Source of the DNA: Candidatus Latescibacterota bacterium
Lineage (GTDB): Bacteria; Latescibacterota; UBA2968; UBA8231
Assembly: GCA_965261395.1 (NCBI GenBank)
Contig: OZ253462.1
Span: 736,001 to 800,000, forward strand
Direction of reading: 5' to 3'
Length of the DNA stretch: 64,000 nucleotides
Each line of letters begins with the position of its first letter. Within the stretch, counting starts at the first letter, position 1. The notes under the pieces are model-generated. The model saw nothing but the letters and a program-made list of their open reading frames with translations, was not told the origin of the DNA and made no database searches. The position numbers were made by a program, and so were the translations under genes. This document shows positions 4,205 to 31,190 of the stretch, one piece after another.

Positions 4205-5134
4205 ATGGCCCCTAGTCCCGACTCGCGAATTCCCTGGTACACCCCCGTCGATCCGGTAACCGTAGAAAAGCACACCCCGGACAAACCCCACCAAGGCAAG
4301 GTGCTGGCCGCCATCCAAGCCCACGCCGACGATATTCCCCTCTTCTGCGCCGGCCTCGTCGCCAAGCTCATCGCCGAAGGCTACACGGCCTATTTGATCC
4401 AGACCACCAACGACGAGAAGTGCGGCCCGGGCACGATGGGCGAGACCATTCTCCAAAACGAGCGCGAAGTCGACGTGCTAGCCGGGGAGTTGGGCTTCAA
4501 ACAGGTCATCCACCTCGGCTACCGCAATCACTTCCTCGACGAAGCCGCCCCCACCGAGCTAAGGGCACGGCTGGTCTTTCTGATCCGCGCCCTCAAAATC
4601 GACACCATCACCACCTTCAGTCCTTGGGGCCATTGGGAGGAAAACCCCGATCACTACGTCACTGGCCAAGCCGTCGAAGCGGCCCGCTGGATGGCTGGTA
4701 TGGGCAAGGATTACCCCGAGCAGTTGGCCTGTGGGATGCAGCCGCACTCGGTTGGGGATCTCTACTATTGGGCGATGCGCCCCGGCCAGCCCTACAACAC
4801 CGTCGTCGATATAGCGCCTCATCTCGACGAAAAGGTCGCCGCCATGAGCGCCAACAAGGCCCAAGGTCCGGCGGGTGCCCACGGCCGTCGCCTCAAGGAA
4901 CGGCTAGCGCGCCAAGGCAAATATCTACCCGCCTTGGGCGACGACGACGAGGAAGCCGACCGCCAGTACATCCGCCTCTTTGGCTTGCAAGAATACCAAC
5001 GCCTCGGCGCGCCCTATGGCTTGGACTACGCCGAGGCGTTCTACTATATGCCCCCCGGCGGAACCTTTACCGGCGCAATGAGCACAGCGGAGATCGAGCG
5101 CTACATCGAAGAACACGCCGAGGACTTGGGCTGA
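4205..5134 (+). CDS. PIG-L/LmbE family deacetylase
   Basis: AHADD metal motif and NPDH motif. Confidence 0.85.
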   Translation: MAPSPDSRIPWYTPVDPVTVEKHTPDKPHQGKVLAAIQAHADDIPLFCAGLVAKLIAEGYTAYLIQTTNDEKCGPGTMGETILQNEREVDVLAGELGFKQVIHLGYRNHFLDEAAPTELRARLVFLIRALKIDTITTFSPWGHWEENPDHYVTGQAVEAARWMAGMGKDYPEQLACGMQPHSVGDLYYWAMRPGQPYNTVVDIAPHLDEKVAAMSANKAQGPAGAHGRRLKERLARQGKYLPALGDDDEEADRQYIRLFGLQEYQRLGAPYGLDYAEAFYYMPPGGTFTGAMSTAEIERYIEEHAEDLG

Positions 5135-5245
5135 GAAGTGTGGGATCGCGCTGTTGCGGAACGGAGACGGAAACACGCCGAGCCGTTTACAGCTTGGTAA
5201 TGGTTTCTTTAATTTGCCCGCACAACTGATTGGGGAGGAACCGCG

Positions 5246-6130
5246 ATGAAACTCACGACGGAACAGATCGCAGAATTCAACACCCGCGGCGTCATCATCG
5301 CCCGCGAGGCACTAGCCCACGACGACTTGCAGCCGGTGATCAACGAGCTGTCGGCGTGGATTGACGCCCGCGCGCGGACGCTGCATGAGGAGGGCGAAAT
5401 AGCGGACCTGCACGAGGACGCCCCGTTTGCCACGCGCTACGGCTTGCTGTTCAAACAGTGCCCTGAGGCCGGGCGCGGCATGGACATTATGCACTATCGG
5501 GGCCGGGCGATGTTCGCCTTCCTCCGCAATGAAAACTTGCTCGACCTCATCGAATCCCTTTTGGGTCCTGAGCTGATCTGCAACCCCATCCAGCACCTAC
5601 GATCCAAGCCACCGCAAGCCTACGAAAACCGCGAAGGCCCCTCTTTCCACAACGCGCCCTGGCACCAAGACGCCGGCGTGATGATGCCAGAAGCCGAAGG
5701 CTCTGACGTCGTCACCTGCTGGCTGCCTTTGGCCGCAGCCACGGTAGAGACCGGCTGCATGGAGGTCTTGCCCGGCCTCGTCGAAACCGGCTATCTCCGG
5801 CATTTGGCGGCCGGCGGCACTACCATCGCCCCCGAGGCCATGCCCCAAATTGAACCCTTCCCCTTGGAGTGCAAGCGCGGCGACGTAGTGCTCATGAGCC
5901 GCTTTACGCCCCATCGCTCCACCCCCAATTACTCAGACCAATGCCGTTGGTCCCTCGACCTGCGCTATCAGCCCACTGGCGAGCACACCGGCCGCACCGG
6001 CCACCCCGACTTTGTCGCGCGCTCCCGCCGCGGTCCGTCCAGCGAACTGACCGACTACGAGGAATGGTGCCGCCTGTGGATTGACGCCTTTGATAATCCC
6101 CATGGCGTGGTCGCACACCGCGGGGAATAG
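5246..6130 (+). CDS. PhyH family dioxygenase
   Basis: PWHQD, WLPL, GDVVLM..TPHRS, RWSLDLRY; GGAGG RBS. Confidence 0.9.
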   Translation: MKLTTEQIAEFNTRGVIIAREALAHDDLQPVINELSAWIDARARTLHEEGEIADLHEDAPFATRYGLLFKQCPEAGRGMDIMHYRGRAMFAFLRNENLLDLIESLLGPELICNPIQHLRSKPPQAYENREGPSFHNAPWHQDAGVMMPEAEGSDVVTCWLPLAAATVETGCMEVLPGLVETGYLRHLAAGGTTIAPEAMPQIEPFPLECKRGDVVLMSRFTPHRSTPNYSDQCRWSLDLRYQPTGEHTGRTGHPDFVARSRRGPSSELTDYEEWCRLWIDAFDNPHGVVAHRGE

Positions 6131-6193
6131 CGCGGCGCTACAAGCAAACTTGGCGAATGGCTGGCTGCGCTGAGCGATTGCAAGGAGACGACG

Positions 6194-7771
6194 ATGGCCA
6201 AACCACGCATTTTTTTCGACCACGACGGTCGGCACCCGCTGATCTACATGTACGAGCCGCCGATGCAGAAAGAAGAGCTGGAGGCGGCGGTAGACGAGTT
6301 GGTGGGGACGCCAGTCGAGGCGCTGTCGCTGACCCTCGGCGATGCGCAGAGCCTGCTCTACGATTCTTAGGTGGGCGCGTTGTGGGGACGGGATATAAAG
6401 AAGTGGCCGCATCTGATCTGGAAGCGGGCCAACCAGAATTTTACCCAATTGATCAAAGCCGGATGCGATCCGCTCCAGGTGCTCTGCGACAAAGCCCATG
6501 CCAATGGCCTGCTGCTCTACGCGATGCTATTGCCGCAGCAGGGGCCGCGGGAGTGGATGTTGAAAAGCTGGGAAAATCCGCGCTTCGCCGCCGAGCAGCG
6601 CGACCCGCAGCCGTTGGAGATCGGCAGCAAGGGCGGTGTGGACGCGGAGTGGCCGGGGTATCGCGCGTGGGATTACGCTCGTGATGCAGTGCGCGAGCGG
6701 AATTTGGCGATTGTCGAGGAAGTGCTCGCGCGCTATCCCGTTGACGGTTTTGAGCTACAGCTCAATTACTGCCCCTATTATTTTCACCCCGATGAGATTG
6801 CGGCGGGGATGGGGATTATGACCGAGTGGATAGGGCGGGTTTATGCGGCGGTAAAAAAGAGCGATCCGGCACGAGAATTGGTCCTGCGCGTACCGGCGAA
6901 TCTGGATGGATGCCGGGCGGTGGGGCTGGAGCCATTGGAGTGGATGCGCCGGGGCATTGTCGACGCGATCGTGCCCGAGGCATCGGGAGCGGCGGATCCG
7001 TCGGCGGATTTCAGCGCCTTCGTCAAAGCGGCACGCGGGACGGTGTGTCGGGTCTTGCCGGCGTTACAGAGTCGGATCGACAGCGACCGGGTCGGCGAGG
7101 GGACGATCGAAATGGTGCGGGCGGGGGCTTGCAACTATTGGGCGCAGGGAGTCGACGGCCTCTATATCGCGCATTGGTTTGGCTGTTGGCCGTATAAGGC
7201 CGATTTCTACCAGAAGCTGCGCGAGGTGTCCTTCCCCGAGACGATGGCGGCCAAGGACAAGGTCTATCGAATCCCCAGCGAGGGCAGCGCGCCGGCACCG
7301 GAGGCGATTGCGCCGCATGTCGCTAATCCGCTACCCATTGAGTTGGCAAAGGGACAGGCGCAACAGGTGGGTTTTGCGGTGAGCGATGATCTGAAAAAAT
7401 GGGACAAGGTCGATCGGGTCCACGAGGTGATCTTGCGGGTGCGAGTGCAGGAGACGACGGAGCGGGACCGCTTGCGCTTTGCTTTTAACGGCAAAGAATT
7501 ACCGCAATCGCTGCTGCGCAAAATCAATCAGATGTACGTGATGGATGCGCCGCGCTATCGGGTTTTTGGCTATTGGTATGTCTTTCGTTTGGACGAAAAA
7601 TTTAGGCCGGTGCAGGGGTGGAATGTGCTGGAAGTCGAACTGCTCAAACGGGACGGGCAGGCGCTACCGGCTGTCGTATTGCGCGATGTAGAGCTGGAAA
7701 TCAAGTACTTGATGGGGAAGAATTACCATCGGGGTTTGATCGATGCAGATCTGGGACCGGGTGAATTGTAG
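6194..7771 (+). pseudogene. Putative TIM-barrel glycoside hydrolase-like protein interrupted by an in-frame TAG (6368-6370)
   Basis: AAGGAG RBS and ATG 6194 give MAKPRIFFDHDGRHP...LLYDS*VGALWG, in frame with ORF 6371-7771 (DYARDAVR, YPVDGFEL motifs). Confidence 0.75.
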
Positions 7772-7795: not shown

Positions 7796-8413
7796 ATGGT
7801 GCGCCGCTACGGGCTTTATTTGCTGCTGGCTGTTTGTCTGGGGTGGTTTGCATACCAGCAGGTGCGTCCGGCTCCTCAAGACGATCCAGACGCGGTCGTT
7901 ATCTGGAGTGGTTGGGGCGAGGAAAGTCCAGCGTTTGAGCTCTATCACCAGTGGTGGGCTGAACTAGAGCGGGAAAAAGGCATCCGGGTTTCTCACGTTT
8001 CGCTAAAGAATTCGGTGATGATCCAGCAGGCCAACCGCGCCCTGGTGCTGGGGGGCGCTCCAGCCCTGTTTCAGAGTTTCGGTGGGTATGGGCTGGCGCT
8101 CCAGGGGAAGTACGGGCTGCTGGAAAATATCTATCCCGAGATCGAGCGGCGGGGTTGGGACCAAGTGCTCGAAAAAAAATGGTTGGATATCGTTACCTTC
8201 GACGGGGAATTTTACGGCATTCCCATCGAAGCCGCCACGTTCGGGATCATCGCCAATACGACCCTCTTCGACCGTCATGGCATCGAGTATCCCACGGATT
8301 GGCCGACGTTTGTGCGGGCCTGCGAAGCGTTCAAGGCGCGCGGTATCCAGCCGCTGCTGATAGCCGGCAAGGAAGAAGGCGGCGGCAATAAGACGCAGAT
8401 TGACGCTTTCTAA
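7796..8413 (+). pseudogene. Truncated sugar ABC transporter substrate-binding protein
   Basis: N-terminal hydrophobic anchor, DGEFYGIP, NTTLFDRHGIEYPTDW motifs; stops at 205 aa (family is usually about 400 aa); no permease genes follow. Confidence 0.7.
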
Positions 8414-8785
8414 GCTGCTTTGCAACTTAGATCCGGTGTACATATTAGGAACCCGACTATCGCCTTTTAGGATGACGATTATGCCGCCCCAGCAAACCCT
8501 CTATCCTGCCGAAGAAACGGCTCGGCGATGGCGACGTGGGAGAAAATCCATTCGGCATGGGCATTCGGGCATACTATATTCGGGGCGGGCAACGGCAGGC
8601 CTTGCGCAGATACCAGAGACGTATCAGCCGAGGAACTCACGGAGATTAGGGCGACTGGCGATGGTGGGGGAAGGTAGCCCATTGTCAAAGTACTCTGAAA
8701 GGTGTCGGCATAGATGTCAAAGAAACCCACCGCTATATATGAAGCGTCTATATAATCCATATCTATATGTGAAAGGAGCCGTTGC

Positions 8786-9472
8786 ATGACACGGGATAGA
8801 ACGCGTAGCAACGGGGGGAGTGAGCCGAGCATCGAGATTGTCGAGTTCTCCGTTGTCGTGATCGCAACTGCAAACAATCCGTCCATCTTAAATCTTGATT
8901 TCTTGCGATACAACGAAATCGTGAATCCAGATTGGCAAGAACAGGGGGCTTCCGTTTCAACTCCGGCTTTTGCCCAGGTATCATTTGAGGGCGGGCTTAC
9001 CGTTAAAGCTGACCAGCAACGTGTCATCTTCGAGCAACTCGGAGACGGATTGGTCGTACCAGAAGTGGCTAAGCGCTATTTTCAGCAGGTCCCGTATGTT
9101 CCTTATTCCGGCATCGGCATCAATCCCAAATTCTTTCTGCGCTCAACGGGAGAGCATCTGCCGCTTATGGAGAGTGTAGTGCGCGATCAAGGTGCTTGGA
9201 TGTCGTTCAAGGATGTAGCGCCGATGGTTCAACTGAAATTAATCTATAGTTACGAAGAAAGAACTATTTCCCTTGATGTTGTCCAGATTGAACCAACGAT
9301 AGATGGCCAGACGGTCTCTGGGATACTGTTCCAAGCGAATGTCCATCGTGATGTCGATGGACCGAACGCACAGGCCCGAAACAAGCACATCCAGTCTATT
9401 TTGGATAGGTGGGAAGACGATCTGGAGGATGTTCGTCTGTTGAGTAAGACTCTGTTAGGAGGAATGAAATGA
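8786..9472 (+). CDS. Hypothetical protein, TIGR04255-like
   Basis: 228 aa; AAAGGAG RBS; SVVVI..NNPSIL, GIGIN, ILFQANVHRD pattern recalled from TIGR04255-type proteins. Confidence 0.55.
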   Translation: MTRDRTRSNGGSEPSIEIVEFSVVVIATANNPSILNLDFLRYNEIVNPDWQEQGASVSTPAFAQVSFEGGLTVKADQQRVIFEQLGDGLVVPEVAKRYFQQVPYVPYSGIGINPKFFLRSTGEHLPLMESVVRDQGAWMSFKDVAPMVQLKLIYSYEERTISLDVVQIEPTIDGQTVSGILFQANVHRDVDGPNAQARNKHIQSILDRWEDDLEDVRLLSKTLLGGMK

Positions 9473-10389
9473 CTGCGGTTTTCGATGAATCCGTACCGAT
9501 TACATACGACTGGAACGAACCCGCATCGCCAACGGCTGTGGGTCCTACTCCAGTCATATCGCCGGAGCCTCCTGCGGAAGATGATTCGGCAGACGTGTAT
9601 CCGGACCCGGTTACGGCAGAAGAACTACTCAGTGTCTCTCAGTTTGGAGAAGGCTCAGAAGCCGAACTCATATCCCCGACAACGGCATATGCGGGATATT
9701 CAATGTGGGGTGGAGTTGGAGAGTACCTTTTTACGAGTCAGAGTACGGAAGGGGTTCCCGGGGGACTTCCTAATGCCTTATTCGGCCTTGAGCAAAGCAG
9801 TGACGCAAAGGAAAAGGGCTTATTGGAATCACTCCAAACGGCCGTACCGAACGTCCTCGATACTTCCAAACAGCCTTATAATATCTATTCCATGCCAGTG
9901 TGGACGTCTCCAGTGTGGAACGAGGTAGGCAAGCACCACGTTCCGGGTCTGACACCAGAGAACAGAACATCCGCGTTTTTTGATGCCGTACTCTCTTTTG
10001 AGCAGATCGTTGAAAACGCAACGGGAGAAGACTTACCTGCTCCGCTCGCCAATGCCCTACTCGATCTTCATGAGATAAACGACGAGGCCGACGAAGAAGG
10101 AATTCCACCGCCTTCCGAATCGGCTATTGCCAACGCGGATCGTCTGATACGAGAAATCTATGACATATTGCCACGTCAATATCTAGTGGAACTCCTGCCG
10201 GAAGGGGTTATTGCTATCACCGTTCCCGGCGGATTTCGGCGTTCAGTTATATTATTGTGCGAATCTAAGGGCGGGGCACTGTGCTCTGTCAACATGAACG
10301 GCGAACATCGGCGCAAACGGTATCCACACGCGGACCAACTGCCGGATAGATTTCTGCATGAAGCCTTGAGTGAACTGGGACAGGAGTAA
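9469..10389 (+). CDS. Hypothetical protein: acidic, Pro-rich N-terminus plus small alpha/beta C-terminal domain
   Basis: ATGA overlap with upstream gene and GGAGG RBS; PPPSESAIANADRLI...PEGVIAI C-terminal region. Confidence 0.7.
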   Translation: MTAVFDESVPITYDWNEPASPTAVGPTPVISPEPPAEDDSADVYPDPVTAEELLSVSQFGEGSEAELISPTTAYAGYSMWGGVGEYLFTSQSTEGVPGGLPNALFGLEQSSDAKEKGLLESLQTAVPNVLDTSKQPYNIYSMPVWTSPVWNEVGKHHVPGLTPENRTSAFFDAVLSFEQIVENATGEDLPAPLANALLDLHEINDEADEEGIPPPSESAIANADRLIREIYDILPRQYLVELLPEGVIAITVPGGFRRSVILLCESKGGALCSVNMNGEHRRKRYPHADQLPDRFLHEALSELGQE

Positions 10390-10394
10390 GTTGG

Positions 10395-10847
10395 TTGGCT
10401 CGCACGAGCCTCCCTCAGAGCATATCTCCGAACGAGACTTTGGGGAGGGGCGTATTTTCAAGCAGACAGGCACGCCAAGCTAGACGCGGGACGAAAATGC
10501 CCCTCAGTGCATTCCTCGAAGCGTGGGGGAAAGTGAAACTCTCCGTTGACCGGCTTGATTTCGCGGAACCTGAAGAGATGGCGGCGCTTGGCGACAGTGT
10601 AGCAGTTGGCCGTAGTGTAGATCGTACGGTCACATTTTATGGCTGGGCCGTCATTGCTGCTAAAGACGCCGAAAACAATGGGCGGCAGGTGGTTTACACT
10701 CCACAACCCGATAATCCATACCATACAGACATTATCTTGCCAGACTCCACAGCGGAGGACCGCGACGAACAAATTAGTCACGCCCAAGAGTTGGCGGATG
10801 CGTCCCTATGGCGCGAACGTCCAAACTCCACGAAAACTGACGAATGA
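10395..10847 (+). CDS. Hypothetical protein, putative ADP-ribosyltransferase-like toxin
   Basis: AGGAG RBS and TTG start; ETLGRG (Arg), LSVDR (Ser), PDNPYHTDI (His) spacing resembles small ART-fold toxins. Confidence 0.5.
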   Translation: MARTSLPQSISPNETLGRGVFSSRQARQARRGTKMPLSAFLEAWGKVKLSVDRLDFAEPEEMAALGDSVAVGRSVDRTVTFYGWAVIAAKDAENNGRQVVYTPQPDNPYHTDIILPDSTAEDRDEQISHAQELADASLWRERPNSTKTDE

Positions 10848-10984
10848 CTCTTCGCGGGTGGACTCAAGCGAAAATAAAACCGACCTAGTCCGCTCCTTGA
10901 ACCGCCTCGCACCAGCTTGACCAAGCAGGCGGTTTGCATTAACTCACTCTAGGCTACCGAAGCTAACCGAAAGACAGGTGCAAC

Positions 10985-12925
10985 GTGGACCTAGACGCAC
11001 TGCTGCGCGACGTGGATCTAGACGAAATGATGCGCCTCTACGACGAGGCGGCTGAGGAGCTGCTGCAAGTCGCGATAAGCGACGGCCACTTTGCCGACCG
11101 CGACCCAAGCGAAATCACCTGGCCGGTGGGCGCAGACCTCGACGCACTCACGCGACGCGCCGAGCTGATCGGCACCATTCACGAGGGCACCCCCCCGCTC
11201 CGCGACAAGCGCCTGCAAGAGGCATACGACCACTACGAGCGCGTCGGCCCCGCCTACCACCAAGCGAATCGCCTCTACCTAGCAACGCGCCGGCTCTTCG
11301 TCGAACGCGGGCGCGGCGACGCACTCGATTTCCACGCGCTCTACCAATCGGTCTATCTACACGCCTTGGGCCGCGACAACCCCTACACCCTTGACGAAGG
11401 TGAGGCTGCCCTCGTTAAGCTGCGGGTCGCCCGCGTGCCGCTGTCCCACGCCCACGCCGTCGCCGAGAAGCTGGAAGCCAGTGCGGCACAAAAAGAACCC
11501 GCGACCGACTCGGCCGACGATCCGCGCTTGGCAGAGCACTACGCCTGCGAAATTGACGGGGTGCGCCACGCCGGGACACTCGGCGATCTGCTTGACGAGG
11601 TTGCCGAGCGCGTCGTCGATTACCTCGCCGCTGGCGAGCACTTCGCCATCCGCTTTAACACCTATAGCAACTTCATCTATCTCGGTATATCGGTGTGGAA
11701 GGCCATCACGGACGCCGACTTGCTCTTGGCCCGCATTGAGGGCCGGGTGCGCGCCCAATGGCACCAAAAGCTGTGCAAGCTGGTCCTGCTGGGTAAGGGC
11801 ATGCTACTCAAGTTCCTCCAAGCCCACTCCGAAGATCCCGCCCAAATCAAGCCGAGGGAATTTTGGTACGGCCAAGAGTATAGCTACCTGACCCGCGACA
11901 TGATCGACCTAACGCGCCGCTTAGTCGGCTACGTCAACCGACTAGCGAGCCGGGTACACGGAGAGGTTGATCCGGTGATCCTGCCCCCCCTGCTCGACGG
12001 CAAGGCCAAGGGCCGCTTTCTCGAATACCAGCACGTCGGGCGACGCCAGAGCCTCGGCTCATGGAGCCGTCGGACGCGCCTCTTGCGCTGGGCTCTCCTC
12101 TACTACCGCACCGGCAAGAAAAAAATGAGCCTCCTAGCGGCTCAACTCCCAGAAGCAGAGCGCCTCAAAGCCGCCAGTGCCCAAAGCAGCGAATGGGGGC
12201 GGAAATCGCTGGACATTTTCGGCATTGAAGTGGCCATAAGCGCCGACCCGCTCTTCGCCGCCACTGCCCGCGACCTCGACCTAGCCAACAAACAGGAGAA
12301 GGTCCTGTTCCTCCCCACGCACCGCAGCCTCTTCGACCATCCGGTGATGAGCAGCCTGCTCCACGATCCTCGCTTCCTCGAGCTGATCGGCTGGCGCGAA
12401 CCCCCCACGCCCGTGAGCCTCGCCCGCGCCCGACTCACCGAACCCGCAACCCTGCGCATTGGTGGCCGCTCTTTTTCGCTGATTGGCTTTACTACCGAGG
12501 AGGTTGACCACATGATGGAGGCCGTTGACGGGCACGTCATTATGAGTCGCTCGGCCGACACAAAGAATCCCACGCGCCGCTTTGCCGAGCTCCTCACAGA
12601 GCGACCGGGCATCGTCTATGGCGAGGGCACCACTGCCGCCTTCGAGAATCAGTGCCTGCCCATGCAGCACGCGCTCTTTGCGTACCTGCCGCCCGACGTG
12701 ATCATCGTGCCGCTGGCTTTTCGCGGCCTCCATTCCCTATGGCCCAAGTGCCCGCGCGGCAATCTCAACATCGGCAGCGGCCGGGTCGAAGTAGTAGTTT
12801 GCCCGCCGATGCTCGGCGAAACCACGCTCCTGCCGCGCAAGCGCGCCCTGCGCACGCAGCTAGAGCCAGCGACGCTCTTCCAAGCCGTACACATCGCGCG
12901 GCTTTTCAACCCGGAACCAGCCTAG
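10985..12925 (+). CDS. PlsC-like lysophospholipid acyltransferase with long N-terminal domain
   Basis: PTHRSLFDH (HxxxxD), IVYGEGT, IIVPLAF motifs in the C-terminal third. Confidence 0.75.
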   Translation: MDLDALLRDVDLDEMMRLYDEAAEELLQVAISDGHFADRDPSEITWPVGADLDALTRRAELIGTIHEGTPPLRDKRLQEAYDHYERVGPAYHQANRLYLATRRLFVERGRGDALDFHALYQSVYLHALGRDNPYTLDEGEAALVKLRVARVPLSHAHAVAEKLEASAAQKEPATDSADDPRLAEHYACEIDGVRHAGTLGDLLDEVAERVVDYLAAGEHFAIRFNTYSNFIYLGISVWKAITDADLLLARIEGRVRAQWHQKLCKLVLLGKGMLLKFLQAHSEDPAQIKPREFWYGQEYSYLTRDMIDLTRRLVGYVNRLASRVHGEVDPVILPPLLDGKAKGRFLEYQHVGRRQSLGSWSRRTRLLRWALLYYRTGKKKMSLLAAQLPEAERLKAASAQSSEWGRKSLDIFGIEVAISADPLFAATARDLDLANKQEKVLFLPTHRSLFDHPVMSSLLHDPRFLELIGWREPPTPVSLARARLTEPATLRIGGRSFSLIGFTTEEVDHMMEAVDGHVIMSRSADTKNPTRRFAELLTERPGIVYGEGTTAAFENQCLPMQHALFAYLPPDVIIVPLAFRGLHSLWPKCPRGNLNIGSGRVEVVVCPPMLGETTLLPRKRALRTQLEPATLFQAVHIARLFNPEPA

Positions 12926-13029: not shown

Positions 13030-16000
13030 CTAAAAGAGCGATAGCTGCTCAGCCCCCCGTCGGCGCGGCATTGCCACATCCTCGCGCGCGAGCAACCGAG
13101 CGGGGATCTCGTCCACAAACGGCGATAGCGCACATTGCACCCGCTCGCCATAGCGCTGGCGGCTGCGCGCCCGCAGCAACACTAGCTCCTCCTCCGCTCG
13201 CGTCATGCCCACGTAAAAGAGCCGTCGCTCCTCGGCGAGGTCGGCGTCCCGCTCCCGGAAGGGGATGAGTCCATCCTCCACCCCACAGACAAATACCACT
13301 GGAAACTCCAAGCCCTTGGCCGCGTGCAAGGTCATCAGCGCGACAGCCTCCGGGCCTTGGGGACCGCCCCGCTCCTCGTAGTCGGCCTCCGCGCCTAGGA
13401 GCACGGTCTCCAGTAGCTGTGCGAGCGTTCCGGCCGCGTCGGCTACTCGGGCCAAGTGCTCTAAGTCCTCGTCCTCCGGGTCGCCGAACTCAGCCTGCCA
13501 GCGGCGCACCCAAGCACCCGCCCCCTCCTGCGCGGCCCATTGCCTGTACTCTGCTATTCGCGCCTCTAGCGCCTCGACCCGATCCTGTGCCGCAGCCGAC
13601 AGTTCCCCTCGCCGCACTTGGCGCAAAATGTGCGGCTCCACGCCCATGGCCTCTAGTGCCTGCCAGCGGCGCACATCCTCTTGCGAGATTGAAGCGTAGC
13701 GAGCAAACGCCAAAGCGGCCCGCACCGCCGGCGCTTGCAGAAAGCCTTTCTGCCCGACGAGCCGATAGGGCAGGCCCTCCTTGCGGAAGCATTCCTCTAG
13801 CGCTCGGCCCTGTTGGCCAGTGCGGAAGAGCACGGCAAAGTCGGCGAAGCTGCGCGTACCCTCTGCGCCAGCATCGGTCTGCACCATGTCGGTACCGCCG
13901 ACCATGCGGGCAATCTCCCGCACCACCGCAATGCCTTCAGCCGTCTCGCCCTGTACCTCCATTAGGCGGATTCGCTCCTTTCCCGGGCGCACGGCCGCGA
14001 GTTCTATGGCCTCGCGCCCCGGATTGTGGCCGACGACGGCCGCGGCGGCCTCGACAATATGTCCCTGTGAGCGGTAGTTCGCACCCAGATGAAAGAGTCG
14101 CGTATCCGAAAAACGGTCGCGCAAGTGAACGAAGTGGGCGGGCGAAGCACCGCGAAAGCTGTAGATCGCTTGATCTGGGTCGCCGATAGCCATCAGACCC
14201 GTGCCCTCACCCGCTAACTGGAGGACCAATCTATACTGCGCGGCGTTGAGGTCTTGGAACTCGTCTATTAGCAGGTAGGGAAAACGCGCTCGCACCTGTT
14301 CCCGCACGGCTGCATCCGCTTCTAAGAGACGCAGCAAATCCAAGAGAATGTCATCGTAATCGCAGGCTCCAGACGCATGTAGAGCCGCCTGATAGGCGTC
14401 GTAATGCGGTCGCCACTCCTCGGCGATCTCATCCGGCCCTTGCGCGGCGGCCTTGGCCAGCGAGATGGCTCGACCGGCAGCGGCGACCGGCCCCGGTAAA
14501 CCGGCGTCTGCCAGCGCCCCTTCCAGCACCCGGCGCGCTTCCACCTCGTCGAGCACCAGCTTTGGCTCGCAGCCCAACTCCCGCAAGAGCGACAACGCCA
14601 AGCGGTGGAAGGTCCCCACCTGCATCGCGCCCAGCCCGGACTCACCGCCCAACAATGCGCTCAGCCGCTGCCGCATCTGTCCTGCCGCTCGCCGGGTAAA
14701 GGTAATGGCCATGATCTGCCCCGGATCCACGCCGCTTGCGACCAGCCGCGCAATGCGCCGCGTCAGCACTCGGGTCTTGCCCGACCCTGGCCCGGCTACG
14801 ACCACTAAAGGTCCTCCTTCGGCCTCTTCGATTTGCCGCTGTGCGGCGTCGAGCGCATCCGCGTCCTGCTCCGCTTGTGCGGTGCTAGCGGGCCTTGGCG
14901 GCGGCATCGGCACCACTTCCTCAGCCGTCTTAGCGGCCGCCGGGCCCAAGTCGAACAGCGCACCTTGCCCTTTTAAGCGCGCCCGCTCCTCCTCGCTGAA
15001 CACGCTGACCACGCCGTACTCCCCATCGTGGCCGGGGTAGATGTCCACCTCGCCGCAGCGCATCCGGCGCACACCCTCGGCCACCAACGGCCCGCCGCAG
15101 CTCTCAATCGCTGCGAGCCCGGCGTGGCGCAATACGTCGAGTTCCGGGCCGATCTCGGCCAAGAGTCGGTCGTACACGGCGCGAACTTTTTTGCTCTTAG
15201 GGCCAACGCCAACCGCTGCGCCGATAACTTCGTCGAGTGGGATCAAGTACTCGTAGGGTGGGGCAACCTCCGGGCGGAACCCCTCCGGGCGATCGGCCAG
15301 TAGTTCCACTCGGTGCAAAACCCCCACCGTCAGCTTGCGTCCGCACACCGGGCAGATTCCCTCAGCGGCCAGCGTTTGCGCCGGCTTGTAGCACACCGCG
15401 CACTTGCGATGCCCGTCGTAGTGGTATTTGCCTTCTTCGGGATAGAACTCCAAGGTGCCTAAAAAGCGCGCTGGGTCGCGGTCTTTGAGCGCAGCGTAAA
15501 TGCCCGGATACGAGCACTCGGTGTCAAAGCACGTGGCCTCACGGGCCAGCTTCTGCGGAGAATGGGCGTCGGAATTAGATATGATCGCATAGCGGTCGAG
15601 GGCCGACAGCCGCCAGTTCATCGGCGGATCCGAGGACAGGCCAGTCTCCACCGCGAAGATGTGCGGCAGCAAATCCTCGTAGCACTCCTCCAACGAGTCA
15701 AAGCCCGAAGAGGCCCCCAAAGCGGCAAAGTGCGGCGTCCATATATGGGCCGGGACGAAGAGCACGTTCTCGTCGGCTTCGAGACAGATTTCTAAAAGGT
15801 CGCGGCTGTCCAGCCCCAAGATGGGCCGGCCGTCGGACTTCAAGTTGCCAATAGCGCCGAGGCGGCGATTGAGTCGGGCGACGGATTCGAGGGAGGGCAG
15901 AATGACGACGTGATGGATCTTGCGGGTCTTGTCGCCCTTCTTGTAGATGGTGCTTATTTCCACCGAAAGCATGAAGCGCACGGCGCGGCGGCAGTGCTCG

Positions 16001-16236
16001 GGCAACTCTTGTTCCACCGCTTCACTCCACGCCGCTTTGAGCTGGTACAGGCCCTCTTCGGCTGGTTCAAGTTGCTCAGATAGTTCGGCGAACCACTCAG
16101 GATGCGTGTAGTCGCCCGTTCCAACCACGTCAACGCCCTTGAGCGCCGACCACTTGTGCAAGTTGGAAGGGTTGAGGTCGCGGCTCGTCGCCCGGGCAAA
16201 GCGCGAGTGCAAATGCACATCGATTATGAACTGCAT
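13030..16236 (-). CDS. Endonuclease Q (PHP) fused to UvrD/Rep helicase
   Basis: DVHLHSRFARATS, GTGDYTHP, SNSDAHS, CxxC..CPVCG; AGPGSGKT, DEFQD, GDPDQAIYSFRGA, TLHAAKGLEF, EERRLFYVGMTRA. Confidence 0.93.
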   Translation of the reverse strand: MQFIIDVHLHSRFARATSRDLNPSNLHKWSALKGVDVVGTGDYTHPEWFAELSEQLEPAEEGLYQLKAAWSEAVEQELPEHCRRAVRFMLSVEISTIYKKGDKTRKIHHVVILPSLESVARLNRRLGAIGNLKSDGRPILGLDSRDLLEICLEADENVLFVPAHIWTPHFAALGASSGFDSLEECYEDLLPHIFAVETGLSSDPPMNWRLSALDRYAIISNSDAHSPQKLAREATCFDTECSYPGIYAALKDRDPARFLGTLEFYPEEGKYHYDGHRKCAVCYKPAQTLAAEGICPVCGRKLTVGVLHRVELLADRPEGFRPEVAPPYEYLIPLDEVIGAAVGVGPKSKKVRAVYDRLLAEIGPELDVLRHAGLAAIESCGGPLVAEGVRRMRCGEVDIYPGHDGEYGVVSVFSEEERARLKGQGALFDLGPAAAKTAEEVVPMPPPRPASTAQAEQDADALDAAQRQIEEAEGGPLVVVAGPGSGKTRVLTRRIARLVASGVDPGQIMAITFTRRAAGQMRQRLSALLGGESGLGAMQVGTFHRLALSLLRELGCEPKLVLDEVEARRVLEGALADAGLPGPVAAAGRAISLAKAAAQGPDEIAEEWRPHYDAYQAALHASGACDYDDILLDLLRLLEADAAVREQVRARFPYLLIDEFQDLNAAQYRLVLQLAGEGTGLMAIGDPDQAIYSFRGASPAHFVHLRDRFSDTRLFHLGANYRSQGHIVEAAAAVVGHNPGREAIELAAVRPGKERIRLMEVQGETAEGIAVVREIARMVGGTDMVQTDAGAEGTRSFADFAVLFRTGQQGRALEECFRKEGLPYRLVGQKGFLQAPAVRAALAFARYASISQEDVRRWQALEAMGVEPHILRQVRRGELSAAAQDRVEALEARIAEYRQWAAQEGAGAWVRRWQAEFGDPEDEDLEHLARVADAAGTLAQLLETVLLGAEADYEERGGPQGPEAVALMTLHAAKGLEFPVVFVCGVEDGLIPFRERDADLAEERRLFYVGMTRAEEELVLLRARSRQRYGERVQCALSPFVDEIPARLLAREDVAMPRRRGAEQLSLF

Positions 16237-16267
16237 ATTGGATCCCCGTTGACTTGCGGAGGTTGCC

Positions 16268-17164
16268 CTAATCCCTCCCAACCCAGTTGGCCACCACAAT
16301 GCCCAACGCCACCAACCCCATGCTGGCCAGCAGATAGGGCGATATGGCCTCGTCCAAGAGCGCGGCACTCAACAGCACGCCCACCACCGGCGTGACAAAG
16401 CTGAAGCCCCCCAATCGCCCCGGCGAGTGATGTCGGAGTAGAAAGACTAGGATAATAAAACACAGCCCGGCGACGGCGATGCCTTGGTAAAGCACGCCGG
16501 CGACGACCGGGCCGGTTAGGACGTATTCGGCCTCGGATTCTAAGAGCGCGCTCCAAGCGGCGAACAGCGGCAGGCTCAGCACGGCCTGCCAGAATAGTAC
16601 TTGATAGGGGTTAAGCCCCTGCACCAGCCGCTTGATTACCACCTGCCGCAAACCCAATAACAAGCCGCTGGCGGCCACCATCGCGTCCCCGAGCAGGTAC
16701 TGCGTGTCGGCTAGCGCAAGCGACTCCCAAAACAACAGCACCACGCCGGCAAACGAAATGGCCAAACCGAACCACCGACCCAAGCCCAAGCGGTCGCCGA
16801 CGAGCAAGTGCGCGAAGAGTGCCGTGGAGAAGGGGTAGATATTGACCACCACCCCCGAGCGGCTGGCTGTGGTGTATTGAGTGCCCGCGTTCAGCAGCCA
16901 TATTTGCAGCGCGAACAGCAGCGCCAAGCCACTCAGCCCCTTCCATTCGCCGGGGGGTATGCGCAGCCGAATACCAGCAAAAAGTGCCCCGACCCATACG
17001 GTCAGAGCACCCAATGCGAAGCGCAAGCCAGCCATCGCCGCGGGCGGCACCCCGTCGAGACCCATCTTGATCGCCACCGGATTGCCGCCCCACAGCACGG
17101 CGGTCACAAGGGCTAGGGTCCCGGCCTGTAGCCCGACGGCTTCATTGCGGATTTCGGCGGCCAA
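16268..17164 (-). CDS. EamA/DMT family transporter
   Basis: About 10 hydrophobic segments; LWGGN..AIK start; duplicated EamA halves. Confidence 0.88.
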   Translation of the reverse strand: MAAEIRNEAVGLQAGTLALVTAVLWGGNPVAIKMGLDGVPPAAMAGLRFALGALTVWVGALFAGIRLRIPPGEWKGLSGLALLFALQIWLLNAGTQYTTASRSGVVVNIYPFSTALFAHLLVGDRLGLGRWFGLAISFAGVVLLFWESLALADTQYLLGDAMVAASGLLLGLRQVVIKRLVQGLNPYQVLFWQAVLSLPLFAAWSALLESEAEYVLTGPVVAGVLYQGIAVAGLCFIILVFLLRHHSPGRLGGFSFVTPVVGVLLSAALLDEAISPYLLASMGLVALGIVVANWVGRD

Positions 17165-28256: not shown

Positions 28257-29630
28257 ATGCCTGTTTCTAGACGCCAATTCCTCAAAAGCGCGGCGGCCGT
28301 TTCCATCGGCTTTGCCGGCCTCCATCGTCACCTCGCGTGGGGCGCTCCAGCGCTCGAAAATAGCTTTGGGCCGCTCGTGCCCGACCCCGGAGGCATCCTC
28401 GACCTGCCCGAGGGTTTTAGCTATCGGGTTCTCGCACGCGCCGGCGAACTCATGGACGATGGTCTGCGATTGCCGGGCGCAGCCGACGGGATGGCTGCCT
28501 TCCCCGGGCCAGAAGGCCGCGTCGTTTTGGTGTGCAACCAAGAGCTGAGCCCCGGGTCGAAAGAAGCCGGTGCCTTTGGCGACGACAACGAGAATCTGGG
28601 CAAACTGCCCAAAGAAGATCTGTACGACTGGGGCCAAGGCCAGATGCCGTCCTTGGGCGGCACCACGAACATCGTGTACAACGCGCAAACCGGCGCAGTG
28701 GAGCGAAAATTTCTCAGCTTGGCCGGCACGGTGCGCAACTGCGCCGGTGGGCCGACCCCTTGGCATAGCTGGATTAGCTGCGAAGAGACGACCCAGCGGA
28801 TCGACGGGCCGATCGAAAAAGACCATGGCTACAACTTCGAGGTCCCCGCTACCACAGAAATCCGCCGCGCCGCGCCAGTGCCGCTCAAGGCCATGGGGCG
28901 CTTCGTGCACGAGGCCATCGCCGTCGATCCTCGCTCGGGAATCGTCTATCAGACCGAAGATACCGGCGACAGCTTGATCTACCGCTACATCCCCGACGCA
29001 CCGGGCAAACTAATAGCCGGCCGACTGCAAGCCTTAGCCGTAATCGACCATCCCGGCTTGGACACCCGCAACTGGGAAAAAGAGCTGGTGCGCCCAGGCG
29101 AGCCGCTCGCCGTGCGCTGGGTCGATATAGAAAACGTCGAGTCGCCAGACAACGACTTGCGCATTCAGGGCTTTGAGGGCAAGGGCTGCGCCCGCTTTGC
29201 CCGCGGCGAGGGCATGTGGTACGGCCGCGATGCGATTTACTTTGTCTGCACCAGCGGCGGCCGCAAAAAGAAAGGCCAGATCTTCCGCTACCAGCCTAGC
29301 CCGCACGAGGGCACGGCCGATGAGGGCAAGGCTCCGGGGACGCTCGAACTCTTTGTCGAGCCAAACGACGGCGACCTAGTCGACAACGCCGACAACCTCA
29401 CGGTCTCGCCCTTTGGCGACTTGATCGTCTGCGAAGACGGCAGCGGGGAAAACAACCTAGTCGGCGTAACGCCCGCCGGCCAGCTCTACCGCTTCGGGCA
29501 CAACCGCATGAACAATTCCGAATTCGCCGGCGCGACCTTCTCGCCCGACGGCCAAGTGCTCTTCGTCAATATCCAGCATCCCGGCACCACGCTGGCCATC
29601 TACGGCCCCTGGGATCAGCGGCGGTCCTGA
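28257..29630 (+). CDS. phoX: Tat-exported PhoX (DUF839) alkaline phosphatase
   Basis: SRRQFLK Tat motif, NCAGGPTPW..W.SCEE, GRFVHEA, DN(L), CEDG, NIQHPG. Confidence 0.92.
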   Translation: MPVSRRQFLKSAAAVSIGFAGLHRHLAWGAPALENSFGPLVPDPGGILDLPEGFSYRVLARAGELMDDGLRLPGAADGMAAFPGPEGRVVLVCNQELSPGSKEAGAFGDDNENLGKLPKEDLYDWGQGQMPSLGGTTNIVYNAQTGAVERKFLSLAGTVRNCAGGPTPWHSWISCEETTQRIDGPIEKDHGYNFEVPATTEIRRAAPVPLKAMGRFVHEAIAVDPRSGIVYQTEDTGDSLIYRYIPDAPGKLIAGRLQALAVIDHPGLDTRNWEKELVRPGEPLAVRWVDIENVESPDNDLRIQGFEGKGCARFARGEGMWYGRDAIYFVCTSGGRKKKGQIFRYQPSPHEGTADEGKAPGTLELFVEPNDGDLVDNADNLTVSPFGDLIVCEDGSGENNLVGVTPAGQLYRFGHNRMNNSEFAGATFSPDGQVLFVNIQHPGTTLAIYGPWDQRRS

Positions 29631-29728
29631 ACGTCCAAGCAGGGCAGCTAGTTCTCAAAGCCATTTGCAGTGGCTAGTCCCCTCCGGGGATGGCTGAGCC
29701 TGAGTCCGGCAGACGATACAGAGTTGTG
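29619..29728 (+). repeat. Direct repeat A, left copy (phoX 3' end plus downstream sequence)
   Basis: 29619-29670 matches 31191-31242 at 49/52; 29698-29728 matches 31258-31288 at 28/31. Confidence 0.9.
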
Positions 29729-29952
29729 ATTAGGGTGAGCTTGAGTTCGTTCCTCGATTTTGACGATTCCGGCGTCCAATCCGCAATAAGCTCGGAAGCT
29801 TCGAGCGCCTTCAGCGATAGGCGAATAAAGCTTTGAATCCGGCCACTCCTAGCCGCGTTTTCCCTTCCGCGTCTTGGCTTCAAACACCGGATCTGCCTTT
29901 TTATGGGACTCACACATCCAATGTCCCCACACTGATTAGTATAAAATAGGGG

Positions 29953-29980
29953 TTGACAAGGGGTTTATGGCCTTGACAAT
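29953..29980 (+). promoter_or_regulatory. Putative sigma70 promoter giving a leaderless transcript
   Basis: TTGACA-16 nt-GACAAT ends 8 nt before ATG 29989; no Shine-Dalgarno. Confidence 0.4.
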
Positions 29981-29988
29981 TTCAACAT

Positions 29989-30393
29989 ATGGCCAAAAAA
30001 ACTAAAAAAACTAAAACCAATGACATCGATAACACCGATCTTGAGTTTAGGAAGTACGTCTTACGATACAGGATTTTCGAAAAGACCACACCCTGGTTCT
30101 GGGGTTGCATATTGGCCTTTATCTTCTATCTAACAGTGGATAGCTTAGCCGGTAAAACAACCTTGGTTGATTTTGCTCTTAAGACTATTCTTGATCTTTC
30201 TCTTGATAGGTACGCTTCTTACCTCCTTACGCTCTTTGCAACTTCTTGGGCCATAAAAGAAAGTATACTGCGGAAAAAGACCATAAAGGAACTTGCCCCG
30301 GCGAAAGAAAATTCTGAGAAACTTATTGATCCTAACCGCGTCTCAAGTGACCTGACAGAAACAGGCGATACCCGACCGGAGGATAAGCTATGA
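29989..30393 (+). CDS. Hypothetical two-TM membrane protein (AT-rich)
   Basis: 134 aa; two hydrophobic segments around LAGKTT; C-terminal IDPNRVSSDLTETGDTRPED. Confidence 0.8.
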   Translation: MAKKTKKTKTNDIDNTDLEFRKYVLRYRIFEKTTPWFWGCILAFIFYLTVDSLAGKTTLVDFALKTILDLSLDRYASYLLTLFATSWAIKESILRKKTIKELAPAKENSEKLIDPNRVSSDLTETGDTRPEDKL

Positions 30394-30992
30394 ATCTCGA
30401 AATGGAAGCAATCGTAGCAGGCATTAGGCTTTTAGTTTGCCTGTCTATCGGGTGGATCATTTACTTCTGGGGCTATCGGAAGTACCGGACTGATTTACTC
30501 CGATACAAACTATTTATACTGCGGGATTCACTTTTCAGAACAACTTATAACATGGGGATTCCCTTTGACTCCCCCGCATATGTAGCGGTCCGTGACGTGC
30601 TAAATGGGCTTTTGCGTCATGCTCACAGAGTGAATCTTGGGGGATTACTGATTGTCTATTGGTGGAAAGACAAAGTCCCACAAAAAGAAGTAGAAGATTT
30701 AGAAGGAGTATTCGCAGCTATAAATGATGAAAAATATAAGAAGGTTATAATTGATACCTGTGAACGTATTATAAAAGAATTATTTTGGCACATACTAAAA
30801 GGTGCCCCTATCCTTTTTCTGTACTTGGTGTTCAAATTTTGCGCCGCGCTTACTCAAGAAAGCCGCAAGGCGTTCAAATTCAATATACAATCTTTGCAAC
30901 GCTTAGTTTGGGAAACTCACGTAAGATACGCAGCGGTGTTGACTGCATGGATATTCAAGACCTCTCCTACTCATAAGCACCTTGGAGGATAG
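30390..30992 (+). CDS. Hypothetical membrane protein (AT-rich)
   Basis: 200 aa; ATGA overlap and GGAGG RBS; N-terminal TM then YRTDLLRYKLFILRDSLF...FDSPAY. Confidence 0.8.
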   Translation: MNLEMEAIVAGIRLLVCLSIGWIIYFWGYRKYRTDLLRYKLFILRDSLFRTTYNMGIPFDSPAYVAVRDVLNGLLRHAHRVNLGGLLIVYWWKDKVPQKEVEDLEGVFAAINDEKYKKVIIDTCERIIKELFWHILKGAPILFLYLVFKFCAALTQESRKAFKFNIQSLQRLVWETHVRYAAVLTAWIFKTSPTHKHLGG

Positions 30993-31190
30993 GTCTCCCT
31001 TTCTTGTCATTCCGTAACACATTGCGTAACATACTATTACGGACAATCCTCCACGCCACAGGAAGGGGCCACTCAAAGCCAACAGCCTCCTTCTAAAACG
31101 CTCCTATGTCTAAGCAACAACCCATCTCGTGAAGGATCATCGGATAGAGCTAGCCCTCTGTCTGGGCTAGCGTAATGTTGTCCGGGTCCA

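Follow-up and report, generated by a model that had tools for sequence, protein, structure and literature searches.

A stretch of 64,000 nucleotides from the forward strand of contig OZ253462.1 (positions 736,001 to 800,000; assembly GCA_965261395.1, Candidatus Latescibacterota bacterium), hereafter referred to as the window, carries a compact cassette of three genes on the same strand, termed here g1, g2 and g3 (Table 1). The three genes are closely coupled: the sequence ATGA at 9469-9472 is common to the stop codon of g1 and the start codon of g2, the TAA stop codon of g2 ends at 10389 and is separated by a gap of 5 nt from the start of g3 at 10395, and each gene is preceded by a purine-rich motif that resembles a ribosome-binding site (RBS), namely AGGAG before 8786, AGGAGG before 9469 and GGAG before 10395. 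The cassette has a GC content of 0.516, compared with 0.602 for the whole window, and it follows a gene for an ABC solute-binding protein (SBP) that is taken to be truncated because its open reading frame (ORF) aligns to only positions 10-162 of the 307-position SBP_bac_1 profile (E 4.4e-13). These features of layout, composition and setting had all been described in a first-pass annotation made from the letters of the sequence, and each of them was found again here. The same annotation had gone on to propose that g3 is an ADP-ribosyltransferase (ART) toxin, g2 its antitoxin and g1 a chaperone or sensor, in the manner of the toxin-antitoxin-chaperone (TAC) systems but with another family of chaperone. 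The analysis described below supports this in part and leads to a picture in which the cassette is best read as a toxin-antitoxin (TA)-like module that is built from new protein families and that carries a TAC-like add-on of a non-SecB kind.

Table 1. Features of the cassette and its immediate surroundings (positions in the window).
Feature	Position	Strand	Description
Truncated ABC solute-binding protein gene, 205 aa	7796-8413	+	Marks the upstream limit of the patch of low GC
Leader of low GC preceding g1	8414..8785	+	GC 0.519; contains the g1 RBS
g1, 228 aa, ATG start	8786-9472	+	Accessory protein, unnamed family
g2, 306 aa, ATG start	9469-10389	+	
g2 N-terminal extension, residues 1-190	9469..10038	+	Acidic, Pro-rich, hypervariable in sequence and length
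g2 C-terminal domain (g2C), residues 191-306	10039..10389	+	Conserved, acidic, putative antitoxin domain
g3, 150 aa, TTG start	10395-10847	+	Putative toxin/effector enzyme, large unnamed family
Spacer between g3 and an acyltransferase-like ORF (646 aa)	10848..10984	+	One weak terminator-like hairpin, 10915-10930

The three protein families are unnamed in any library or solved structure that was searched, and they are real and large. The products of g1, g2 and g3 are all without a match in Pfam, NCBIfam, PADLOC and PHROGs at permissive thresholds, in agreement with their earlier description as unannotated ORFs. In a comparison with the described defence systems of PADLOC-DB v2.0.0, nothing was returned for g1 or g2, g3 gave only BrxP at an E-value of 0.054, which is the level of chance, and no component matched a system model. 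Sequence profiles of the g1, g2C and g3 families produced chance-level matches only when compared with the sequences of the PDB, and searches of the ESM Atlas with g3 and g1 led to unnamed clusters only, the nearest named ones being DUF6098 (0.91) and DUF3422 (0.78) at levels that are prone to chance. Likewise, Pfam scans over 126 relatives of g3 and 48 C-terminal domains of g2, and an NCBIfam scan over 41 relatives of g1, revealed no consistent family, and no description of the three families was found in the literature searched, although a text search cannot exclude that they are in print under another name. For g3, 361 homologues were recovered at E<=1e-3 among 401 candidates, and a profile made from 40 sequences retrieved 867 cluster representatives (50% identity) at E<=1e-3 and 515 at <=1e-10; all 150 proteins among the matches listed are 84-184 aa long, mostly 130-150 aa. 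The homologues of g1 number 81, none of which has a Pfam domain, and 42 homologues of g2 were found within the length band searched.

The conserved unit is a two-gene core composed of the C-terminal domain of g2 and g3, with g1 as an accessory. To define the distribution of the cassette, one genome per species was searched (185,579 species genomes), which yielded 216 pattern matches, 169 of them encoding a relative of g3; the counts out of 80 given throughout refer to the best 80 of these 169 loci. In tblastn searches with the window proteins, g2C was found directly upstream of g3 in 79/80 loci, spread over nine named phyla, whilst full-length g1 was detected with a g1 profile in 40/80, together with a fragment in one further locus (L022), and it is on this difference that the definition of the core is based. 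The first-pass annotation had regarded all three genes as the unit, which is too wide, and had treated genes 2 and 3 as an antitoxin-toxin-like pair, which the co-occurrence of the homologues and the predicted complex described below both favour. Of 73 g2-g3 ORF pairs, 58 have a spacing within the range -10 to +20 nt and 23 overlap by 4 nt; the longer negative spacings arise from the calling of maximal ORFs. A 4-nt overlap between the stop codon of g1 and the start codon of g2 occurs at 23 of 39 loci. The presence of g1 varies with lineage, since it occurs in none of the 17 loci from Chloroflexota and in 10 of the 13 from Acidobacteriota.

Structure prediction supports, without showing, a direct interaction between the two core proteins. 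The model of the g2C-g3 complex reached an ipSAE of 0.89 in each of three runs, compared with 0.22 for the best of three controls, and so passes. Among 157 solved complexes 116 attain the pass mark that was applied, against 2 among 215 mismatched pairs, a calibration that holds only roughly here because the alignments were ones made for this analysis. The contacts agree between runs to at least 89%, the partner pLDDT is at least 91, and the modelled interface involves residues 22-44, 91-95 and the conserved helix 123-136 of g3. It is unlikely that this result stems from a memory of a solved complex, because sequence searches found no solved relative of either chain. The two families also differ in charge, the median isoelectric point (pI) of the g2C family being an acidic 4.7, as against 8.1 for the basic-leaning g3 family.

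Within g2, conservation across the relatives begins at about residue 191, and seven positions of the C-terminal domain (S69, C74, C82, Y95, P102, D103 and F105 in the numbering of the domain piece) are invariant in 48 sequences. The two cysteines, which correspond to residues 264 and 272 of g2 and lie near an HRR motif, form a possible metal or redox site; the stretch that contains them gives weak matches to PDB sequences of the B-box zinc fingers of TRIM21 and TRIM5, at E-values of 0.08-0.4 that amount to chance. At one locus (L010:6432-6863, + strand), a second copy of g2C, 80% identical to window residues 180-306, is located immediately downstream of g3 and creates the order g2C-g3-g2C'.

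The g3 family has an enzyme-like pattern of conservation. In a set of 126 sequences that are 31-52% identical to the window protein, S50 and H110 are invariant and G17, R18, F40, D52, R53, G83, W84, P103, N107 and I113 are conserved in >=90%, so that the Arg (ETLGR), Ser (LSVDR) and His (NPYH) motifs singled out in the first-pass annotation do coincide with the most conserved positions of the family. Of the 80 loci, 79 keep the core R18-S50-D52-R53-N107-H110 unaltered, the exception being L066, which carries D52A. The AlphaFold2 (AF2) model of g3 (pLDDT 86.7, pTM 0.80) has the order beta(15-20)-alpha-beta(48-53)-alpha-beta(83-88)-beta(98-101)-beta(110-114)-alpha(123-136)-beta(138-141), in which strand 1 carries R18, strand 2 carries S50 and the fifth strand has H110/D112 at its beginning. 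Taken together, this conservation suggests an enzyme with a basic, phosphate-binding pocket. Several entries among the g3 relatives (P0004, P0017-P0019, P0022-P0024 and P0029-P0032) are only 116-117 aa long and cover the C-terminal 76-77% of the query; they probably start at an internal methionine, M35 in the window protein, and so would lose strand 1 with its E14-x-LGR18 motif. The TTG start is favoured for g3 because conservation extends upstream of M35, and such a mis-start in the short entries may have hidden the family.

Whether this putative enzyme could be an ADP-ribosyltransferase, as first proposed, has to be judged against what defines that group. The ART fold is an NAD+-binding core of split beta-sheets, and its catalytic triad consists of an R/H on strand 1, an S/Y on strand 2 and a catalytic Glu on strand 5, the last within a (Q/E)-x-E motif; DarT, ParT and RES are examples of toxins with this fold that are paired with cognate antitoxins. 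Like the ART toxins (CmdT among them) and the KptA/Tpt1 enzymes, which belong to the ART superfamily, g3 is a small alpha/beta protein that bears a conserved Arg in strand 1 and a Ser in strand 2, and its modelled order of strands and helices places R18, S50 and H110/D112 where ART cores keep their conserved residues. KptA/Tpt1 chains (9ld4, 9ldi and 6e3a) are indeed the top fold matches of g3, occupying 6 of the top 10 rows of a Foldseek search of the PDB, although these matches are weak (E 0.1-0.43 with a best E of 0.1, probability 0.28-0.75, query-normalised TM-score (TMq) 0.35-0.37); rank 3 is taken by a chain from the TreTu/TriTu complex and rank 27 by the mART domain of SdeA, and in BFVD an RNA 2'-phosphotransferase appears at rank 36 with an E-value of 1.2. 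Against this, nothing reached E<=1e-3 in either PDB or BFVD, and the rows named for ART families all have TM-scores <0.4. A scan of the 126 relatives for Pfam families of ART type gave nothing at E<=1, profile searches of PDB sequences with g3 found no solved ART or other relative, and an hhalign comparison of the g3 family with E. coli KptA gave a probability of 0.35% (a weak test, the template being a single sequence). Furthermore, the canonical catalytic Glu is absent, because no Glu is conserved at >=90% in the 126 sequences, and the fifth strand bears the invariant H110 and D112 in its place. The ART-like label that g3 had been given is consequently not established, and it is retained here as a lead only, an assignment that we consider improbable.

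The protein encoded by g1 fits neither TIGR04255 nor a SecB-like fold. The first-pass annotation had linked it to TIGR04255, for which no match was obtained with the window protein (E<=1) or with any of 41 homologues (E<=10), bearing in mind that the HMMER filters drop most matches above about 0.1; the term TIGR04255 was likewise not found in the literature searched. The AF2 model of g1 (pLDDT 84.7, pTM 0.82) looks like a pseudo-duplicated alpha/beta unit, and a Foldseek search of the PDB returned three matches at E<=1e-3, which are Arabidopsis TATA-box-binding protein (TBP; 1vok) and two AdoMetDC/prozyme chains. The 1vok match has an E-value of 6.4e-4, a probability of 1.0 and a TMq of 0.33, and many further TBP entries follow it. 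The resemblance is regarded as one of fold type and not of homology, because the query-normalised TM-scores between g1 and TBP are as low as 0.31-0.36, with an rmsd of >10 A. A SecB-like fold was also considered and rejected: there is no SecB entry among the Foldseek matches listed for g1, which include TBP, AdoMetDC and McsB-type folds. The g1 family is acidic to neutral on average, with a median pI of 5.65.

Although g1 is accessory to the core, its presence is tied to the N-terminal extension of g2. In the window protein this extension comprises the first 190 residues, with a pI of 4.05, a net charge of -24 and 10.5% Pro, much as the first-pass annotation had described. An extension of 87-209 aa precedes the C-terminal domain in 39/39 loci with a called g1 ORF, and in 26 of the 39 loci that lack one it measures <=56 aa even in the longest possible ORF; one of the 13 other loci without a called g1 ORF (L011) does have g1 according to a profile search. 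Three Latescibacterota loci that share the downstream gene of the window (L002, L004 and L013) carry deletions that remove g1 and the extension together: L002 has the equivalent of window positions 8380-8850 followed immediately by that of 9994-11100, and the junctions of L004 and L013 lie at about 8854|10045 and about 8824|10044, respectively. In all three, codons 1 to about 22 of g1 are fused in frame to g2 from about codon 176, and g2C and g3 are left intact; because the endpoints differ, more than one deletion event must have taken place. A comparison of L020 with its relative L025 revealed that homology starts exactly at the boundary of the C-terminal domain (position 5654), with g1, the extension and everything upstream of them replaced in L020 by unrelated DNA. 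This replacement means that a long maximal g2 ORF in a locus without g1 can be spurious, and the upstream ORFs of three such loci (L020, L050 and L073) are not distant relatives of g1 (hhalign probabilities of 0.06-0.23%). These observations suggest that g1 and the extension are gained and lost as one add-on. The TAC-like architecture with a non-SecB accessory family that was proposed in the first-pass annotation is supported to this extent, in that g1 is tied to the putative antitoxin extension.

The cassette is distributed patchily, with 169 matching stretches in the 185,579 species genomes. The loci come from Pseudomonadota (19), Chloroflexota (17), Latescibacterota (16), Acidobacteriota (13), Nitrospirota (6), Binatota (3), Rhodothermota (2), Thermodesulfobacteriota (1) and Tectimicrobiota (1), with two left unplaced. 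The closest relative (L001) is a Latescibacterota metagenome-assembled genome (MAG) that is 95% identical in g3 and has the same flanking genes as the window. Together with this patchy spread, the form of the cassette as a low-GC islet and the occurrence in one MAG of two copies of the two-gene form on different contigs (L004 and L008, both JAJEFJ01 records) are signs of horizontal mobility. The neighbourhood was examined by taking non-overlapping ORFs of >=100 aa within 1.5 kb, 265 in number and represented by 203 cluster representatives, and comparing them with PADLOC at E<=1e-6. A neighbour from a non-generic PADLOC family was present in 27/80 loci (38/265 ORFs), or in 31/80 if weak and generic matches are counted; the defence-island setting that had been anticipated is thus seen as a frequency without a matched control and not as an enrichment. 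In L012, L014, L015, L017, L028 and L066 the cassette, located at about 4400-6450 in each, is found between or adjacent to HmaA and HmaB, which are an SNF2 helicase (E 0, L012) and a DUF1156 methylase (E 0, L014), respectively, and these Hma-embedded cassettes belong to three phyla (Acidobacteriota, Latescibacterota and Pseudomonadota) and to Binatia. Other defence neighbours include type I, IIG and III restriction-modification (R-M) genes, OLD/AriA-like ATPases, HEC-01, HEC-05, PD-Lambda-2 and several PDC candidates.

On balance, we consider it somewhat more likely than not that the cassette is a horizontally mobile, type II-like TA module of undescribed families with an optional TAC-like add-on, a reading that is supported by the conservation of the pair, the model of the complex, the joint loss of g1 and the extension and the frequent defence neighbours. 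A role for g3 as the effector is supported by its enzyme-like conservation and by the contrast between a basic-leaning g3 family and an acidic g2C family. In the scheme that we infer for the toxicity of g3, its neutralisation by g2, the binding of the extension by g1, the trigger and the biochemical activity, g3 would be a small enzyme-like effector. Its conserved residues (Arg, Ser, Asp, Asn and His) are located in the model within strands or beside them, an arrangement that would suit a pocket binding a substrate that carries phosphate, for instance a nucleotide or a nucleic acid. The acidic g2C would hold g3 inactive by binding it directly, and in the model it is placed on residues 22-44 and on helix 123-136 of g3. 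At the window locus, as at about half of those compared, the putative antitoxin additionally bears the long hypervariable N-terminal extension and is accompanied by the translationally coupled upstream g1, which would bind and stabilise the extension, or read it out, and so set the stability or availability of the antitoxin. If g1 were then lost or diverted, for example by a phage product, g2 would be destabilised and g3 would be freed.

This arrangement is close in outline to the TAC systems that use SecB. The TAC addiction element is a short segment at the C-terminal end of the antitoxin. In the cassette, by contrast, a hypervariable segment of 87-209 aa is added at the N-terminus, the accessory g1 is modelled as TBP-like and not SecB-like, the gene order is accessory-antitoxin-toxin, which differs from that of the TAC systems as compared here, and no family matches a known TAC component. 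What the cassette has in common with HigBAC and CmdTAC is the coupling of three genes, a TA core that can stand alone, a modular build and a location near defence genes, and, as in TAC, the extra segment of the antitoxin occurs, and is dispensable, together with the accessory gene. In SecB-type TAC the antitoxin's addiction element is recognised by the chaperone, for which a phage protein competes (PMC11618068; bioRxiv 10.1101/2024.02.24.581848). A comparison with type II TA modules in general is equally two-sided: the small, adjacent, co-directional and translationally coupled pair, with the acidic protein upstream, a patchy distribution and a predicted complex, is what would be expected of them, and both its insertion between HmaA and HmaB and its proximity to R-M genes of types I, IIG and III recall the TA modules found in R-M and defence operons, whereas the absence of the families from Pfam, NCBIfam, PADLOC and PHROGs and of a detected DNA-binding domain in the antitoxin is not. 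Compared with the ART toxins, g3 differs in having no significant match in fold or sequence, no conserved catalytic Glu and His110 and Asp112 at the fifth-strand position, and g2 is neither a macrodomain nor a helix-turn-helix (HTH) protein.

A number of observations weigh against the TA interpretation or against its regulatory part. With respect to the core, the proposed catalytic residues of g3 are absent from the modelled contacts with g2C, and family-library scans detected no domain in g2 that could bind DNA for autoregulation. In L054, g3 (6007-6444) has an intact core and no g2C is detectable upstream of it, and in L060 (5633-6387) a stop codon interrupts g2C beside an intact-looking g3; both are awkward for an obligatorily toxic g3, because an intact-looking g3 stands without an intact g2C, and possible explanations are decay of these copies, errors in assembly or a different neutraliser at the two loci. 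With respect to the context, the neighbours of the cassette in the window are housekeeping genes and not defence genes, and the neighbour count in the wider set is the uncontrolled frequency given above. With respect to the add-on, 12 loci without g1 have a maximal g2 ORF that reaches >=78 aa upstream of the C-terminal domain, and an independent-pairs test on the g3 tree was only suggestive (median p 0.0625), the seven independent contrasts comprising 4-5 in the same direction, none in the opposite direction and 2-3 without a difference; the test was conservative and used a quick g3 tree, with contrasts on supported branches. The extension revealed no conserved motif: no column reaches 70% conservation in an alignment of 41 extensions of 87-209 aa, and a Trp column found in 28/41 was matched or exceeded by 4 of 15 shuffled and realigned controls (range 5-35), so that this motif is inseparable from an alignment artefact. 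The first-pass annotation had likened the cassette to CmdTAC, whose antitoxin has an unstructured segment, yet a crude charge-hydropathy measure puts 35/41 extensions, that of the window included, on the folded side and so does not support disorder. Finally, TBP-like domains bind nucleic acid elsewhere, so that g1 could be a regulator or sensor and not a chaperone.

A more ambitious form of the TA interpretation is possible, if rather unlikely. It would make the cassette a tripartite phage-defence module of a new class, in which the TBP-like protein guards the antitoxin extension as an infection sensor and in which the effector founds an enzyme family with an R-S-D-R-N-H active site; the natural deletions would then illustrate how the sensor add-on plugs in and out as one unit, and the g3 family may have either an undescribed fold or that of a Tpt1/ART-like enzyme, diverged to an extreme degree, with nucleic acid as its substrate.

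A different role for g1 is a second alternative, to which we give a low probability. The core would still be a TA pair, and g1 would be a nucleic-acid-binding module of TBP-like fold instead of a chaperone, serving as an operon repressor, a recruiter of the substrate or a sensor of foreign nucleic acid that is tethered through the g2 extension. It draws on the fact that the best structural matches of g1 are TATA-box-binding proteins and on the lack of a recognisable DNA-binding domain in g2, which leaves room for another component to regulate the operon. There is also a parallel in the anti-phage toxin RnlA, whose TBP-like domains belong to the toxin polypeptide and are described as binding the RNA substrate, the first of them being required for activity (PMC8266594). 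The cassette is like RnlA/LsoA in having a TBP-like fold inside a TA defence context, and unlike RnlA in that the TBP-like g1 is a separate gene that co-varies with the antitoxin extension and in that g3 is not a HEPN protein. On the other side, the TM-scores and rmsd given above indicate similarity of fold type alone, the median pI of the g1 family would be unusual for a DNA binder, and a nucleic-acid-binding g1 by itself leaves the joint loss of g1 and the extension unexplained.

It is similarly improbable that the cassette is no toxin system at all. By that account g2C and g3 would be the two conserved subunits of an enzyme or regulator complex that serves physiology, in stress or metabolism, g1 would be an accessory subunit, and the defence neighbours would reflect a general clustering of accessory genes. 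The metabolic and housekeeping flanks in the window fit such a role, as do the 53/80 loci without a defence-family neighbour within 1.5 kb, the state of g2C at L054 and L060, and a tblastn search of 72,556 plasmid and 50,697 phage records with g3 that recovered no relative. A physiological complex is harder to reconcile with a patchy presence over nine named phyla with flanks that differ between lineages, with a low-GC islet, with insertion into Hma and proximity to R-M, OLD/AriA-like, HEC and PDC genes, and with the build of a small coupled pair, acidic upstream and more basic downstream. The proposal made first, of a CmdTAC-like system with an ART toxin that has an R-S-type core, appears quite improbable given the results for g3 described above, a g1 that is not SecB-like and the failure of any PADLOC model, those of CmdTAC-era systems included, to match any of the three proteins.

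If the TA module with a TAC-like add-on is the correct reading, antitoxin control in the style of chaperone addiction has arisen at least twice with unrelated accessory folds, and guarded antitoxin extensions would be a general design for sensing infection and not a peculiarity of SecB. The module would also bring with it a sizeable new toxin family, with hundreds of cluster representatives and so far confined to uncultured lineages. The natural in-frame deletions offer a ready-made comparison of the three-gene with the two-gene form.

The surroundings of the cassette in the window give some further detail. When GC content was calculated in sliding windows of 2062 bp, 22/620 had a value of <=0.52, all of them in the cassette patch or in a second patch at about 29-30 kb. 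The remaining part of the truncated SBP gene was not found elsewhere in the window, and the same truncated piece lies upstream of the cassette in the closest relative, L001. The leader of g1 contains a sigma-70-like site at 8552-8580, the region having two promoter-like sites where shuffled sequences predict 2.1, and terminator-like sites in the region do not exceed the shuffled expectation (one found, 2.5 expected). Neither direct nor inverted repeats above chance flank the cassette, and no second copy of it was found in the window. The neighbouring genes encode PhyH, UxuA, an Mg-chelatase-like ATPase, PIG-L, the truncated SBP, the acyltransferase-like protein, a UvrD-type helicase and EamA, and the acyltransferase-like gene downstream of g3 is syntenic in eight Latescibacterota loci. 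Directly upstream of the truncated SBP gene, positions 6371-7771 (+ strand) hold a 466-aa ORF that matches no Pfam family at E<=1e-3, and on the opposite strand at 13030-16368 a protein of 1112 aa has UvrD helicase domains that begin only at about residue 506, its first 500 or so residues being without a Pfam match at the same threshold. The second low-GC patch, at 28800-31000 with a minimum GC of 0.478, is located between genes for a PhoX phosphatase and a RecQ helicase. It contains two ORFs on the + strand, 29989-30393 and 30390-30992 (134 and 200 aa), which overlap by 4 nt, have no Pfam match and are a candidate for another two-gene cassette.

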